Shown piece by piece: positions 9,446 to 20,796 of a stretch of 64,000 bases of DNA. How positions within the stretch are numbered: position 1 is the stretch's first letter; the number at the start of each line of letters is the position of its first letter. The position numbers and the translations under genes were made by a program. The DNA is from Methanobacteriota archaeon (GTDB taxonomy: Archaea > Thermoplasmatota > SW-10-69-26 > JACQPN01). A model generated the notes under the pieces. The model was not told where the DNA came from. It ran no database searches and was given only the letters and a program-made list of their open reading frames with translations. The stretch lies in NCBI GenBank assembly GCA_016207515.1, contig JACQPN010000002.1, positions 12,350 through 76,349 of the forward strand, given 5' to 3'.

Positions 9446-10765
9446 ATGATCGACCTTTCGAAGCGCCGCTACTCGCTCGCGATAAGTCCCGCCGACGACG
9501 GCAAGGAGGCCGTGGTCGCCGGTTGGATCCACGAGTCGCGCGACCTCGGCGGCATCGCGTTCATCATCCTGCGCGACCGGGAGGGGACGCTCCAGGTCGT
9601 GCTTCCGAAGAAAAAGATCGAGAAGCAGCTGCTCGACCAACTGTTGGGCATCAACCGCGAATCGGTGATCGCGATCCGCGGGAGCGTGAAAGCCTCGCCT
9701 CAAGCGCGTAACGGTTATGAGATATTCCCGCTCGAAGTAGAGGTGCTTTCCCGGGCGGCGGCCCCACTGCCTCTTCCCGTGGCGGACAAGGTGCATGCCG
9801 AGATCGACACGCGTCTCGACAACCGGTACATGGACCTCAGAAAGCCCGAGGTCGCGGCGATCTTCCACGTTCGTAGCGCGATGCTCCGGTCGGCCCATGC
9901 GTTCTTCGCCGAACGCGGTTTCACGGAGATCCATACGCCGAAGATGATCTCCGCCGCTTCCGAGGGCGGGACCGATCTTTTCCCCGTCGCCTATTTCGAG
10001 AAACAGGCGTTCCTTGCCCAATCGCCGCAACTCTACAAGCAGATGATGATGGCGACGGGCCTCGACCGGGTCTACGAGATCGCGTGGTACTTCCGCGCGG
10101 AGGAGCACAACACGCGTCGCCACCTCAACGAATCGACCGCCATCGACGTGGAGATGGCCTACGTCTCTAGCGAAGAGGACGTGATGGGCCTTCTGGAACG
10201 GCTTATCCAACGGATCTGGACGGACATCACGAAGAACGAGACAGCGGCGCTCGCGGCCGTCGGGGCGAAGCCCGTGGTGCCAACGTTGCCGTTCCCGCGC
10301 GTCACCTACGACGAGGCCATTCGACTCGTCAACGAGGCGGGGTTGAAGCTCGAATGGGGCGAGGACCTCGGCACCGAGGGCGAGAAGAAGCTCGGCGATC
10401 TCATGCTCGCGAAGGGGCACGAGTTCTACTTCATAAAGCATTACCCGGCAGCGGCGAAACCTTTCTACGCCTACGTGGAGGACGGGTCGCAGCTGTCTCG
10501 TTCGTTCGACCTCGACCACAAGGGACTCGAAGTCACGAGTGGGGCCCAACGGCAGCACGATTCCGACAAACTCGTGAAGCGATTGGAGGAGAAGGGCCTG
10601 AATCCGAAGGATTTCGAGGCGTACTTGTCCGCATTCCGTTACGGCATGCCGCCGCACGGCGGGTTCGGGTTGGGGATCGAACGTCTGGTGATGGAACTTC
10701 TTGGGGTCGAGAACGTGCGGGAAGCGATACTGTTCCCGCGCGACAGGCAGAGATTGACCCCATAA
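9446..10765 (+). CDS. aspS: aspartate--tRNA ligase (archaeal/eukaryotic type)
   Basis: 439 aa; N-terminal OB anticodon-binding domain, class II motifs (FRAEE, GMPPHGGFGLGIERL). Confidence 0.95.
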   Translation: MIDLSKRRYSLAISPADDGKEAVVAGWIHESRDLGGIAFIILRDREGTLQVVLPKKKIEKQLLDQLLGINRESVIAIRGSVKASPQARNGYEIFPLEVEVLSRAAAPLPLPVADKVHAEIDTRLDNRYMDLRKPEVAAIFHVRSAMLRSAHAFFAERGFTEIHTPKMISAASEGGTDLFPVAYFEKQAFLAQSPQLYKQMMMATGLDRVYEIAWYFRAEEHNTRRHLNESTAIDVEMAYVSSEEDVMGLLERLIQRIWTDITKNETAALAAVGAKPVVPTLPFPRVTYDEAIRLVNEAGLKLEWGEDLGTEGEKKLGDLMLAKGHEFYFIKHYPAAAKPFYAYVEDGSQLSRSFDLDHKGLEVTSGAQRQHDSDKLVKRLEEKGLNPKDFEAYLSAFRYGMPPHGGFGLGIERLVMELLGVENVREAILFPRDRQRLTP

Positions 10766-10954
10766 GGGAGTTTTCGGCGTCGAATCCTGGCTTGAACGAC
10801 CCTCCATGATGAGAATCGACCACGTCTTGCGGGCGCCACCACGTTGGTCGCCTTCTGGGGGGCCCACGGGGCCTCAAGCGGCGGCTTTTTGTATTTGAGG
10901 GTTTCCCTAAACGCTCTTACGCGACGGGTTGCGAGATATGGTCGGTTGCCGCCA

Positions 10955-11485
10955 ATGCCGATCCAAAGGGATGCTACGCCTGTCGCAAGCACATTGTCGC
11001 CGCCGCAGCGGGAACTTCGGGCACGCGGGACGCTAGGTGAAGAGTTGCCTCTCGACTACTTCCGACTCTTTTCGGATAGCCTGGTCACGGACCTTCACAC
11101 TTTGGAGGACGATGCCGTCATCGAGGACCATCTGTTCACCGCGGGCAAACGCGCCGGCGACGTGTTCTCGCGCGTGGTCTCCAAGAACACCATCCACCTT
11201 CCGAAGAAACTGGCCGTCCTTTCCGAGGCCCTATACGATTTCAAGGTGGGGATAGCGAGTTTCAGGATCCAACCTGGCTACATCCGCTTTACGATAACGG
11301 AGTGCGTACACTGCGCTGGCGCGAAACCTTCTGGCCGGGCTTTGTGCCGTTTCGAGGCGGGCATCGTCGCCGGGGCGTTGGAGAGTTTCGTCGAGCGTGA
11401 GATCGACGGTGCTTCCGTCACCGAGACCAAGTGCTGGGGGCTCGGGGACGACCGGTGCGAGTTCACGGTCGCGATGCCTGTGTGA
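10955..11485 (+). CDS. V4R domain-containing protein
   Basis: C-terminal Cys-containing V4R-like segment (CVHCAGAK...CRFEAGIVAGALES...TETKCWGLGDDRCEF); start uncertain. Confidence 0.65.
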   Translation: MPIQRDATPVASTLSPPQRELRARGTLGEELPLDYFRLFSDSLVTDLHTLEDDAVIEDHLFTAGKRAGDVFSRVVSKNTIHLPKKLAVLSEALYDFKVGIASFRIQPGYIRFTITECVHCAGAKPSGRALCRFEAGIVAGALESFVEREIDGASVTETKCWGLGDDRCEFTVAMPV

Positions 11486-11814
11486 GTTTGCCGCGGACCG
11501 TGACACGCGTTGAGTTCCCCTGCCGTGCCAGGGCCGCCACGTCCGTTCCTTCTCGTCGAGGGTCCGGGTCCGCGATGTGAGCGGGGCGCCATGCGGTTTC
11601 TCGGCCGATTCTCCGTTTTTGTGGAACGCCTTTTGACAGACCTGAACCGGTCCTAATCACGGTTGAGGCTCTAAGAAACCGTCTGTCGGGAAACCGGCTT
11701 CCGACCGGCGGCGTGCCGAAAAAAGCGCCCGTATCTCGAATAGGGTCTGAGGAAATTGTATAAATAATCCAAAATCAACGGACCAGCACCGCACGACGCG
11801 GTGGAGGCTGAAAC

Positions 11815-12042
11815 ATGCGACCAAAACACAACCGATTGGAATCCGTCTTGGAGGCAAGCGAGGCACGGTTCGAATCGGGCGAACACCTGGAGGCGCCCGA
11901 AGCGCCGAAAGAGGCAGCGAACGTGGAACACAGGATCCGGTCCGTCGACTCGATCGCCCGCACGATGAGCATCATCAACAGGCACCCGATGCACGTGAAG
12001 GGTGGGTTCGCGGAAGGCACAGACGCCTGGAACAACGCGTAA
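11815..12042 (+). CDS. hypothetical small hydrophilic protein
   Basis: 75 aa; ATG ~50 nt downstream of TATA-like gtataaataatcc (11758-11770); its last codons lie inside the first copy of the tandem repeat. Confidence 0.35.
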   Translation: MRPKHNRLESVLEASEARFESGEHLEAPEAPKEAANVEHRIRSVDSIARTMSIINRHPMHVKGGFAEGTDAWNNA

Positions 12043-12264
12043 GGGGGACCGAGGGCCCGGGAGGGCACGAGGTCGCCCACTTTGGATGCACCCTTTGGCC
12101 CTGGCGCAAACAACTGTTTGCGCGGGGCCGCGCGCACGCCCGGCGTGCGCCGCGGTAAAGGGTGCTGGAGCAACGCGTAGGGGGGACCGAGGGCCCGGGA
12201 GGGCACGAGGTCGCCCACTTTGGATGCACCCTTTTGTAAAGGGTGCTGGAGCAACGCGTGGCGC
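12027..12264 (+). repeat. tandem direct repeat (two full ~70-bp copies plus a partial third) with GC-rich hairpins
   Basis: ctgga(a/g)caacgcgt(a)gggggaccgagggcccgggagggcacgaggtcgcccactttggatgcaccctt at ~12027 and ~12165, partial copy at 12245; palindromes gcgcaaaca-ac-tgtttgcgc and gcgcacg-cccgg-cgtgcgc between copies. Confidence 0.8.
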
Positions 12265-12585
12265 GAAAAAATCCCTGCGAAAACCAACGTCCGAGGCGAA
12301 GAAGGAGAGGCAAACGGGGGCGGGGCATTCTTTCCGCATCAGTGGAACGGGTCGCCCCGCGCGTCCGGCCGCCGGGCATGCACCGGATGCCGGGGCGCAC
12401 GGGGGTTTTCCATGGAGGCAGCGCAATCTTTTGAACGGCCCCGGGCAAATGCCAATGACGATGTTTCCAAACGTGCGCTAAAGCAGGGTTTAATACCCGT
12501 GGAGTCTCCATTATACGCCGCGGGAGCGGAGGACAACGGGAAGCCTTACGTTTTTCCGACCGCGCGGACATGAGGAAATGACTCG

Positions 12586-14109
12586 ATGGATGGGCTGAAG
12601 CTCGTCGTTAGGCTTTTCGACATCGACCTCGGCAAGTACCAGGTGATCCTCCACGAGAAGGACGCCGAGGAGCTCGGCATCCACTCGCAGGACCGCGTGA
12701 AGATATCGCGCTCCGACGAGACGATCACCGCGATAGTCGACACGACCGATTCCTTCATCGAACGCGGGCAGGTCGGGGTCTTTTTCGAGGTCCAGCAAAG
12801 GCTCGAACTGACGGAAGGCAACACGCTCAAGGTCGTCCCCGCCGACAAACCGGCGAGTGTCGCTTACATCAGGAAGAAGATGGAGGGGAAGGACCTCTCG
12901 CGCGAAGAGATAGACACGCTCATCCGCGATGTGGTCGACGGCAGCCTAACAGACATCGAACTCGCGGCCTACGTCACGAGCATCCAGATCCGTGACATGA
13001 ACCTGCGGGAGGTCGAGGACCTCACGAACGCGATGGTGAAGTACGGCGAGGTGATCGATTTCGAGGGCGCCGAGATCTTCGACAAGCACTCTATAGGTGG
13101 CGTGCCGGGGAACAAGATCTCGCTGCTCGTCGTCCCCATTGTGGCGGCGGCGGGGCTGCTCATCCCGAAGACCTCGTCGAGGGCGGTGACGGGTGCGGCG
13201 GGAACGGCCGACATCATGGAACTCTTTTGCAACGTGCGCCTCTCGGCCGAGGAGATCAAACGCATCACGCTCGAAGTCGGAGGTGTCCTCTCATGGGGCG
13301 GTGGCGTGAACCTCGCCCCTGCGGACGACATCATCATACGCGTCGAGCATCCCCTTTCGCTCGATCCCCGCTCGCAGCTCCTTGCGAGTGTCATGGCGAA
13401 GAAGAAGGCGGTCGGGGCGCGTAACGTCGTCATCGACCTTCCGATGGGCGAGGGCACGAAGATCGTCCAACAGGACGAGGCCCGTAAGATCGCCCGCGAC
13501 TTCATCGACCTCGGCGAGAGGCTTGGGATGAAGGTGGAATGCGCGATAACGTACGGTGGGCAACCGGTGGGAAAGGCCATCGGCCCTGCGCTCGAGGCGA
13601 ACGAGGCGTTGCTCGCGCTCAACAACGGCGACGCGCCGCAATCGCTCGTCGAGAAATCCGTCGGCATCGCCGGGATGCTCCTGGAGATGGGCGGCGTCAC
13701 GGCGCGCGGCAAGGGCCGCAGACTCGCCCAAGAGATCCTTGAAAGCGGGAAGGCGCTGCAGAAGTTCGACGAGATAGTCATAGCGCAGGGTGGCATGAAA
13801 CCGAAGGAGCAGGAGATCGGCCGTCACTCGGCCTCGATCCTCGCTCCAAACGGCGGTTACCTCACGGGCGTTGCGAACCGCCGGCTCGTCCACATCGCGA
13901 GGCTCGCCGGCGCCCCAAAAGACGGTGGCGCGGGCGTCGTCCTTCATAAGAAGCGCGGTGACAAGGTGGACACGGAGGAGCCGCTTCTGACGATCTATTC
14001 GAGTTCGGAGTACAACCTCAAGACGGCGCTCGCGGAGGCGAAGCGGGGCGTGCCGGTCACGATCGAAGGCATGGTTCTCCAACGCGTGCCGGACTTCCAG
14101 GAGTTTTGA
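12586..14109 (+). CDS. AMP phosphorylase (archaeal thymidine phosphorylase-family enzyme with N-terminal extension)
   Basis: 507 aa; nucleoside phosphorylase family II motifs (DKHSIGGVPGNKISL, SSRAVTGAAGTAD) plus the ~80-aa N-terminal domain typical of archaeal AMPpase. Confidence 0.88.
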   Translation: MDGLKLVVRLFDIDLGKYQVILHEKDAEELGIHSQDRVKISRSDETITAIVDTTDSFIERGQVGVFFEVQQRLELTEGNTLKVVPADKPASVAYIRKKMEGKDLSREEIDTLIRDVVDGSLTDIELAAYVTSIQIRDMNLREVEDLTNAMVKYGEVIDFEGAEIFDKHSIGGVPGNKISLLVVPIVAAAGLLIPKTSSRAVTGAAGTADIMELFCNVRLSAEEIKRITLEVGGVLSWGGGVNLAPADDIIIRVEHPLSLDPRSQLLASVMAKKKAVGARNVVIDLPMGEGTKIVQQDEARKIARDFIDLGERLGMKVECAITYGGQPVGKAIGPALEANEALLALNNGDAPQSLVEKSVGIAGMLLEMGGVTARGKGRRLAQEILESGKALQKFDEIVIAQGGMKPKEQEIGRHSASILAPNGGYLTGVANRRLVHIARLAGAPKDGGAGVVLHKKRGDKVDTEEPLLTIYSSSEYNLKTALAEAKRGVPVTIEGMVLQRVPDFQEF

Positions 14110-20240: not shown

Positions 20241-20559
20241 CTGGTTCTGGGCACGCTGTTAAGGGCAGGTTTGCTAAATAAGAATCGAACGAAGGCCCGG
20301 TGTTTCGCGTCGCATGGGCGAAGGGAAGGGGGCGAGTCGTCACCCGTCGTCGGCCGGCGGCGGCCATGGGCAGAGGCCTTGAACGGACCCCATGTCCAGG
20401 CAGTCGGCGGGCCGTCTTGTCATCGGGACGGCGGGAAATCCTTCTCCCGACCTGTGACCTGTGAACGTTCCAATCTTCTCCGGTTGATTGTTCGCGACAA
20501 TGTATAAATAACCTGAAACCCAATAGTTGTAGTAATAATCAATTGAAAGGTTGATACTT

Positions 20560-20796
20560 ATGGACAATGGGCCGGGCACTTCAGTACCTTCGGACGACGC
20601 GGAACCCCTGAAGGAAGTCAAAGTCAAGATTCCGCTCGAATACCACGTGAAACTACACTCGATGAAGGTGCTCACGGGTCAACAGATCAGTGACACGATA
20701 ACCGACGCGCTGAGATCCTATTTCTTGAAACGCGACGGGCCGCAGAAACTTGAGCACGCGGAGCCGTCGGAGCTGCTTGACGGCGTCACTGGGTAA
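20560..20796 (+). CDS. small hypothetical protein, possible ribbon-helix-helix regulator
   Basis: ORF 20551..20796; TATA-like tgtataaataacc at ~20500; beta-strand then helix pattern (VKVKIPLEYHVKLHSMKVLTGQQISDTITDALRSYF). Confidence 0.4.
   Translation: MDNGPGTSVPSDDAEPLKEVKVKIPLEYHVKLHSMKVLTGQQISDTITDALRSYFLKRDGPQKLEHAEPSELLDGVTG

Follow-up and report, generated by a model that had tools for sequence, protein, structure and literature searches.

The stretch of DNA analysed here (hereafter the window; 64,000 nucleotides of contig JACQPN010000002.1, archaeal DNA with a base composition of 63% GC) contains, upstream of the AMP phosphorylase gene deoA, an open reading frame (ORF) of 75 codons, termed ORF75, and a short array of direct repeats that starts inside it. 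On the sequence evidence, ORF75 is a genuine protein-coding gene, the 3' end of which was duplicated locally in tandem, and the duplicated region presumably serves as a 3'-end or terminator region. To this reading as a whole, comprising the genuine gene, the local tandem duplication and the putative 3'-end module, we assign a probability of about 0.72. The encoded protein belongs to no named family.

ORF75 starts with the ATG at 11815 and stops with the TAA at 12040-12042, and its product ends in ...GGFAEGTDAWNNA*. This agrees with the initial annotation of this locus, which had described a 75-aa product ending in DAWNNA* (the asterisk denotes a stop). A codon log-odds model was trained on 24 confident genes of the window, and ORF75 was compared with off-frame and true-gene windows of 75 codons. 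Its score of 0.255 lies at the 99th percentile of off-frame windows (mean -0.57) and at the 11th percentile of true-gene windows (mean 0.46). The GC fractions at the three codon positions (.60/.45/.79) are close to those of confident genes (about.64/.45/.82), and every alternative ORF overlapping the ORF75 region looks non-coding by composition.

A homologue of equal length (P0002, 75 aa, 57% identity, E=3e-15) is encoded on a Logan contig of 1 kb (L001), which displays the same synteny as the window, the small ORF being followed by deoA. In ORF75, a short motif near the N-terminus (K4, R7, L8, L12) and a C-terminal domain of residues 40-75 (RIRSVDSIARTMSIINRHPMHVKGGFAEGTDAWNNA) are conserved, and the acidic linker between them is variable. 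Within codons 40-75, differences between window and L001 are distributed 0/0/11 over the three codon positions, i.e., all 11 are third-position changes. The distance from the ATG to the domain is equal in both. K4, R7, L8 and L12 are retained in L001, and R7, L8 and L12 are kept through different codons (CGA/AGG, TTG/CTC), which argues for translation from the ATG at 11815.

Across 11950-11996 (47 nt, codons 46-61), the window and L001 are 100% identical and not even a synonymous change is seen, while the remaining 21 codons of the domain include 11 with third-position changes (Fisher p=7e-4, or about 0.007 with the count restricted to four-fold codons). The pattern hints at an extra constraint at the nucleotide level, such as might come from an RNA structure, from an antisense target or from recent recombination in this tract. 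The same identity, together with the strongly structured 3' region (z = -3.95 upon folding), might be taken to mean that ORF75 is a chance frame in a non-coding RNA gene, in which the conserved part would be RNA and not protein. This explanation is effectively refuted by the substitution pattern and appears highly improbable: the C-terminal half shows the 0/0/11 distribution, residues are conserved via different codons, the related ORFs described below (P0003 and those of contigs L008-L010) are alike as proteins and not as DNA, codon usage is gene-like, and Rfam yields no match. At gathering thresholds there are 0 Rfam matches in the whole window, and within 11600-12650, with E up to 10, the best sub-threshold candidate is RsmW (20 bits vs a gathering threshold of 52). 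The initial annotation had proposed codon-usage scoring and a homologue search as checks, and had held that atypical codon usage together with a lack of homologues would speak against the gene; the codon usage is that of a gene, and homologues were found (P0002, P0003 and the ORFs of L008-L010).

These homologues outline a small-protein family. An exhaustive HMMER search against 1.8 billion protein sequences added a single member, P0003 (42 aa, E=1e-4), from a Methanobacteriota metagenome-assembled genome (MAG); its gene, on contig L004, is convergent with the 3' end of deoA. The contigs with the deoA genes closest to that of the window (about 70% identity) carry ORFs of 50-52 aa between the genes of aspartyl-tRNA synthetase (AspRS) and deoA (L008, L009 and L010). 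Their motif M..FR.V.SYVTQMSLVKNCPSHIKGAY... matches the ORF75 motif RIRSVDSIARTMSIINRHPMHVKGGFA, and the common core R.V.S....MS[IL][IV][NK]..P.H[IV]KG[GA][FY] is also found beside deoA in four further Thermoplasmatota/Methanobacteriota contigs. Among the six-frame ORFs of the collected loci, a hidden Markov model of the family matches family ORFs only (E 1e-21 to 5e-30), the ORFs of L008, L009 and L010 scoring at E 1e-28 to 5e-30. All members found (6/6, 42-75 aa) adjoin deoA, in two orientations. The small ORF was not found in the more distant deoA loci L011-L013, and a weak match in L012 (2740-2988) is not a homologue. Scans of genome and metagenome contig collections returned no further relatives, only an already known SAR81 contig.

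ORF75 has no match in Pfam, NCBIfam, PHROGs or in a sequence search of the PDB, and no similarity to the deoA protein. For the family, no relative is found in Pfam, NCBIfam or PDB; the only library match is a marginal one of the L008 member to a PHROGs family of unknown function. AlphaFold2, run on an alignment of 3 sequences, reached a predicted local distance difference test score (pLDDT) of 61, with only a helix at 44-56 moderately confident.

The initial annotation had placed a TATA-like box at 11758-11770, ahead of the ATG at 11815, and had considered the ORF promoter-driven. Both claims hold: on reading the sequence, gtataaataatcc occupies exactly these positions, and a combined TFB-recognition element (BRE) and TATA box, GGAAATTGTATAAATAAT, is found at 11752-11769, 46 nt before the ATG. 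In the DNA alignment with L001, the promoter block CTCTGAGGAAATTGTATAAATA(A/T)TC is nearly invariant (one substitution in 23 aligned columns), and its flanks have diverged. The box fits the consensus upstream of other window genes, and the TATA island is among the longest AT-rich islands of the window. L001 also carries GGAG at the position corresponding to the Shine-Dalgarno sequence of ORF75. Transcription is predicted to start near 11788-11792 (about 11790). A scan for bacterial-type promoters and terminators gave no match; such a scan is not applicable to archaea. Elsewhere in the window, at 20499-20512, the TATA box acaatgtataaataacc is almost identical to that of ORF75; it adjoins AT-rich islands at 20530-20561 and may mark a strong or divergent promoter region.

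Downstream of the domain, a repeat search reveals two 70-nt copies (12027-12096 and 12165-12234) which are 97% identical, and a 24-nt sequence, GTAAAGGGTGCTGGAGCAACGCGT, at 12155 and 12236. The repeat cores exceed chance, with 0 matches in 100 shuffles. BLAST of 11990-12270 finds no copy elsewhere in the window, only the local ones, and viral contigs contain 0 matches to the repeat unit. By alignment, the homology can be followed back to GATGCAC (11988), some 40 nt 5' of the point where the exact repeat begins and further than the initial annotation had noted. The repeat unit consists of a segment X (the last ~17 codons, MHVKGGFAEGTDAWNNA*), a 36-nt stem-loop (SL1) and CTTTG. The window is arranged as X1-SL1-CTTTG / X2-SL1-CTTTG / X3 (about 2.4 units), and L001 as X1-SL1-CTTTG / X2 (about 1.6 units). 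Duplication of the C-terminal segment together with the downstream hairpin, as claimed earlier, is evident from the repeat copies and the alignment, with the same layout in L001. What had been called a hairpin element turns out to be the stem-loop plus a palindrome that derives from duplicated coding sequence.

Translated in the ORF75 frame, the region reads ...DAWNNA* GGPRAREGTRSPTLDAPFGPG...GKGCWSNA* GGPRAREGTRSPTLDAPFCKGCWSNAWREK... and onward ...CKGCWSNAWREK. The earlier statement that the downstream copies re-encode GCWSNA* in frame thus applies to copy 2; copy 3 has TGG at this place and no stop. The non-coding X copies differ from the coding one by a 6-nt insertion, CCTTTT, and by a deletion of 22 nt (window) or 7 nt (L001). 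The insertion turns GCAC/GT.AAGGG.G (inserted at the slash) into GCACCCTTTTGTAAAGGGTGC, the source being the duplicated segment that codes for MHVKG.

Independent Logan assemblies of the same organism (runs SRR12113385 and SRR12113390, k=31) bear on the reality of the array. Contigs L002 and L003 end at the equivalent of 12072, 30 nt past the stop, and L006 starts at the equivalent of 12205, the first 31-mer with the TTTT that distinguishes copy 2. The repeat is thus real and not an artefact of MAG assembly, because the Logan contigs break where 31-mers stop being unique.

The in-frame continuation of the repeats raises the question of whether the downstream copies might be translated by stop readthrough, frameshifting or ribosomal bypassing between repeats. 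The frame is open from 11815 to 12573 (759 nt) except for TAA 12040 and TAG 12178. Phage T4 gene 60, a case of ribosomal bypassing, has stop-proximal hairpins and matched direct repeats, to which the present arrangement bears resemblance, and the second copy in L001 retains a perfect coding tail. However, the segments that readthrough would add are non-coding in composition (scores about -0.1, GC2.62-.78), the second L001 copy is in the +1 frame and its zero frame stops after 18 codons, and the spacer alignment contains non-triplet indels. Bypassing from copy to copy would moreover yield the same protein, without benefit. We consider such recoding very unlikely. The long ORF spanning the third copy (ORF117), which the initial annotation had thought spurious, is dismissed here as well: it is not kept in L001, where non-triplet indels break the frame, its codon score is at the non-coding level, part of it coincides with the conserved deoA promoter, and it has no family match.

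Both hairpins of the array are conserved. Folding of the window and L001 sequences shows that SL1 has one architecture in both: an outer helix of 3 bp is separated by a mismatch from 4 further bp, and a GA/GA internal loop and an apical helix with a small loop follow. In L001, GACC/GGUC is replaced by GGCC/GGCC, and the GGGA tetraloop by an AAC loop. Because of its tandem G.A pairs and its GNRA loop, SL1 is better read as a structure of the plus-strand RNA. The intact palindrome, together with the preceding CTTTGGAT, is identical at 29/29 positions in L001, where the neighbouring spacer is barely alignable. Perfect hairpins with arms of at least 8 bp number 11 in the window, and 3 of them are located within 143 nt here. 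The first palindrome copy is split by an insert of about 60 nt, placed precisely in its loop. Neither copy 2 nor L001 carries this insert, a target-site duplication is lacking, and the window contains no second copy of it.

Archaeal terminators generally have no hairpin requirement. U4 tracts are an archaeal terminator signal, and more tracts lead to stronger termination (PMC8716108). In the window, a tract of at least four U shortly after the stop is present in CCCTTTTGT at 12230-12238, and likewise at the equivalent site of L001; other window genes carry GTTTTG or GTTTTC directly after their stops. The first palindrome copy has only T3, the insert having destroyed the U4 and left CCCTTTGG. 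Of the two palindrome copies, only the second, intact one would accordingly make a good terminator. The deoA gene has an independent promoter, the block CGTGCGCTAA.G.AGG.TTTAATAC.CGTGG.GTCTCCAT.ATA being conserved in L001, and L008-L010 carry analogous boxes of the type CCCGAA..TTCAAATA.

The palindrome and the stem-loop might instead be cis-regulators of deoA, as a DNA operator or an RNA leader, with the small ORF as a leader or regulatory partner. The complete conservation of the perfect 9-3-9 palindrome between window and L001 within a diverged spacer fits this idea, as does the constant vicinity of the small ORF family to deoA, and a V4R-domain protein similar to the regulator MsvR is encoded just upstream. 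However, the palindrome is located ~245 nt 5' of the deoA TATA box (12489-12496), with unconserved, indel-rich sequence between them, and the palindrome is missing from relatives that share the synteny and the deoA promoter. A leader role of the small ORF is impossible in L004, where it is convergent with deoA, and the GA/GA loop and GNRA tetraloop favour a plus-strand RNA over a DNA site. Regulation of deoA by these elements appears unlikely.

For the reading of a tandemly duplicated 3' end, the following mechanism may be proposed. ORF75 would be transcribed from its own BRE/TATA promoter and translated from the Shine-Dalgarno-led ATG into a 75-aa protein. The gene's own 3' end (~17 codons, SL1 and CTTTG) was duplicated locally in tandem; only the first tail copy would be translated, and the CCTTTT insertion in the non-coding copies made a perfect 9-bp hairpin with a U4 tract. 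The two hairpins and the U tracts would then act on the RNA as a 3'-end module that terminates and/or stabilises the transcript ahead of the deoA promoter. Through unequal recombination or gene conversion between the direct repeats, the copy number would change and the copies within each genome would be homogenised. Two observations point to this last step: the copy number differs (1.6 vs 2.4), and the tail copies are more alike within a genome than vs their orthologues (both L001 copies have AAG/K, and GCG is common to all window copies). The terminator role and these dynamics are what we infer; they are offered as probable and no more firmly than that.

Several points weigh against this reading or against parts of it. 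The first concerns the untranslated second tail of L001 (369-398 vs 275-304), which still specifies EGTEAWKNA* without any change. Six positions separate it from the translated tail, each a silent or stop-to-stop difference, and its +1 frame means that simple readthrough would not translate it. When the window serves as outgroup, the lineage of the untranslated copy accounts for at least two and up to four silent changes; by a rough estimate that was not computed, the chance of only silent changes there has a p between 0.002 and 0.05. A purely decaying duplicate does not predict such a coding-intact spare tail, which requires recurrent recombination or a recent past as functional end, and suggests an intermittent coding constraint. 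Furthermore, no comparable element accompanies the gene in relatives that encode the 42-52-aa form, and the family hence does not require it. Only two sequences carry the repeat, and only three independent sequences carry the domain above marginal similarity to ORF75. The N-terminal 39 codons are saturated with change at all positions (24/21/27), and the signal of purifying selection is absent from the linker (codons 13-39), which evolves near-neutrally. An in-frame GTG preceded by GAGG is present just 5' of the domain in both genomes (window 11923-11925, L001 170-172), and a start there could give an isoform of 39-44 aa resembling the short family members. A simple terminator scan found no match; it seeks a bacterial hairpin followed by a T run, and the U4 tract here is located in the loop. 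Finally, the sites where the transcript starts and ends, and its termination at the palindrome, are predictions from the nucleotide sequence.

The intact L001 tail leaves a small probability for two other views of the array, the exchangeable cassette discussed below and an integrative element. In the latter, the unit of tail copy, SL1 and palindrome would be the footprint of a site-specific integrative or miniature mobile element that targets the 3' end of the gene and brings a replacement C-terminal end; the direct repeats would be similar to attL/attR, and the window would represent a tandem double insertion. Such an element would account for two L001 tails that are intact coding ends with silent differences only, for copies that are more alike within a genome than orthologous copies are, for the presence in one clade of the family only, and for the further hairpin-rich insert of ~60 nt in the palindrome loop. 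Yet the inter-repeat sequence measures just 64-123 nt, the neighbours include no integrase or transposase, no other copy exists in the window or in viral contigs, and there are neither terminal inverted repeats nor short target-site duplications. The palindrome moreover derives from the duplicated coding sequence, as tandem duplication predicts and an imported element does not. We regard a mobile element as distinctly unlikely.

Table 1. Features of the ORF75-deoA region and of related loci. Positions refer to the window unless a contig is named; empty cells, no entry.
Feature	Position	Strand	Remarks
AspRS (aspartyl-tRNA synthetase) gene	9446-10765	+	
V4R-domain protein gene	ends 11485	+	
Archaeal promoter	11750-11770	+	BRE-like purine-rich GGAAATT, then TATA box TGTATAAATAATC
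Shine-Dalgarno GGAGG	11803-11807	+	7 nt ahead of ATG 11815
ORF75	11815-12042	+	real protein-coding gene on sequence evidence; NCBI hypothetical protein HY556_00635
Segment X1	11988-12042	+	last ~55 nt of coding sequence (GATGCAC...CTGGAACAACGCGTAA); founder copy
SL1 copy a	12043-12078	+	GGG-G-GACC-GA-G-G-GCCC-GGGA-GGGC-A-C-GA-GGUC-G-CCC; tandem GA/GA internal loop, GNRA tetraloop
Palindrome copy a	12088-12165	+	arms GCACCCTTT (12088-12096) and AAAGGGTGC (12157-12165)
Insert of ~60 nt	12097-12156		splits palindrome copy a; two perfect 8-bp GC hairpins (12104-12123 and 12132-12150)
Copy 2 of coding tail	12165-12180	+	CTGGAGCAACGCGTAG (..CWSNA*); in ORF75 frame, past its stop
SL1 copy b	12181-12216	+	identical to copy a
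ORF117	12220-12573	+	spurious ORF; codon score -0.09, GC2/GC3.59/.62
Intact palindrome	12226-12246	+	GCACCCTTTTGTAAAGGGTGC; 9-bp arms, U4 tract in loop; putative terminator or 3'-end hairpin
Copy 3 of tail	12246-12259	+	CTGGAGCAACGCGT, then GG, no stop; array end
deoA promoter block	12473-12520	+	TATA TTTAATAC at 12489-12496; right boundary of the ORF75 transcription unit
Spacer from ORF75 to deoA			544 nt
deoA, AMP phosphorylase	12586-14109	+	TIGR03327, 711 bits; conserved neighbour of the small-ORF family
Family members of 42-52 aa	L008 2722-2874; L009 1316-1468; L010 1764-1922; L004 1532-1660		all adjoin deoA

The genes around the repeat region encode AspRS, a V4R-domain protein, the AMP phosphorylase and an MgtC-family protein. 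NCBI lists the source as a 'Euryarchaeota archaeon' MAG, and the closest named homologues of the window's AMP phosphorylase come from Thermoplasmatota MAGs. The V4R-domain ORF (10844-11485) probably starts at ATG 10955 (176 aa, as called in Logan contigs) and not at TTG 10844; a TATA-like ctttttgtatttgagg is located at 10886-10896 in its region. The V4R-domain protein weakly resembles MsvR, a redox regulator (E=3e-10 in NCBIfam, below the cutoff), and a V4R-domain gene is also found nearby in L012. In two of the more distant Thermoplasmatota loci, a type III RuBisCO gene is located upstream of deoA instead (L011 1624-2919, L012 1451-2716). L009 has an extra ORF of 175 aa with a hydrophobic N-terminus between the small ORF and deoA. 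A scan found no tRNA or tmRNA genes. On the minus strand, three long antisense ORFs (170, 198 and 251 aa) span the repeat region between 11671 and 12571; by their non-coding composition they are GC-rich artefacts. In annotation, these antisense ORFs and ORF117 should stay uncalled over the spacer.

The data define a previously unnamed family of small proteins (42-75 aa) that is tightly linked to deoA in the Thermoplasmatota/Methanobacteriota lineage. A functional link of the small protein to AMP phosphorylase may be hypothesized, and the family offers a concrete candidate for a role in archaeal AMP/nucleotide salvage (AMP phosphorylase, ribose-1,5-bisphosphate isomerase and type III RuBisCO). 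The conversion of a coding segment, by a 6-nt insertion, into a conserved perfect hairpin with a U tract would show clearly how regulatory sequence can arise from coding sequence. A more far-reaching joint proposal is that the small protein is a dedicated partner of AMP phosphorylase (a regulator, assembly factor or small subunit), as the location of all six members next to deoA in two orientations would suggest, and that the array is a maintained 3'-end cassette that can be exchanged by recombination. If the cassette exists, each tail copy would periodically become the functional end, which would explain the silent-only changes in L001, and the locus would show, on a small scale, how coding sequence can be turned into a terminator hairpin while still being competent to code. 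This joint proposal is speculative and appears rather improbable.

Several known types of element were considered as identities of the array and rejected. In a CRISPR (clustered regularly interspaced short palindromic repeats) array the spacers would not be mutually identical, as the supposed spacers are here (70-nt copies 97%), with spacings of 138 and 81 nt and 2-3 repeats. For a bulge-helix-bulge (BHB) intron, the tail copies of the window pair only through the palindromic ACGCGU and no 3-4-3 motif is seen; the L001 tail copies (AACGCUUGA, AACGCCUAG) are unable to pair. An L7Ae-binding kink-turn does not apply, SL1 having a symmetric 2x2 GA/GA loop and no 3-nt bulge in both window and L001. 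A diversity-generating retroelement was rejected on the grounds that the copy differences are not adenine-specific. A self-cleaving ribozyme and a replication origin were likewise considered and rejected.

Repetitive extragenic palindromic (REP) sequences and bacterial interspersed mosaic elements (BIME), as well as archaeal miniature inverted-repeat (MITE) and palindrome-associated (PATE) transposable elements, are dispersed in tens to hundreds of copies, and it has been suggested that they influence termination or the stability of the mRNA. The locus resembles them in its GC-rich hairpins, clustered in a 3' intergenic spacer and sometimes tandem. Unlike them, the element described here is homologous to the adjacent coding sequence; a dispersed mobile repeat was rejected, with only local copies in the window and 0 in viral contigs. 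Integrative elements with archaeal integrases of the SSV or pTN3 type, which use att sites in tRNA or protein genes, are similar in that their direct repeats include a gene's 3' end, with the gene kept intact by the upstream copy. They differ from the present case, which has no integrase or cargo and in which the intervening palindrome derives from the gene itself. An att pair of an integrative element was accordingly rejected: the repeats are present, but only hairpins (64-123 nt) are located between them, and no recombinase is nearby.

Archaeal U-tract terminators, assisted by aCPSF1 and mapped by Term-seq in Methanococcus maripaludis (PMC8716108), are comparable with respect to the U4 in CCCUUUUGU and the U3 tracts in CACUUUGG, which are placed in series, shortly past the stop and before the next promoter. 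The present site differs from them in that the U4 tract is in the loop of a perfect 9-bp hairpin, after a second stem-loop. Tandem duplications and microsatellite-like arrays under concerted evolution share the head-to-tail units with a fractional last copy, the likeness of copies within a genome and a copy number that differs between close relatives. Unlike them, the array of ORF75 starts inside a coding sequence, includes its stop, and has one copy remodelled into a conserved perfect hairpin. As a protein, ORF75 is similar to other uncharacterised archaeal micro-proteins (<80 aa), being short, leadered, without detectable domain, restricted to a narrow lineage and easily left unannotated. 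What sets its family apart from these is the strict linkage to AMP phosphorylase, which is observed in all six loci.

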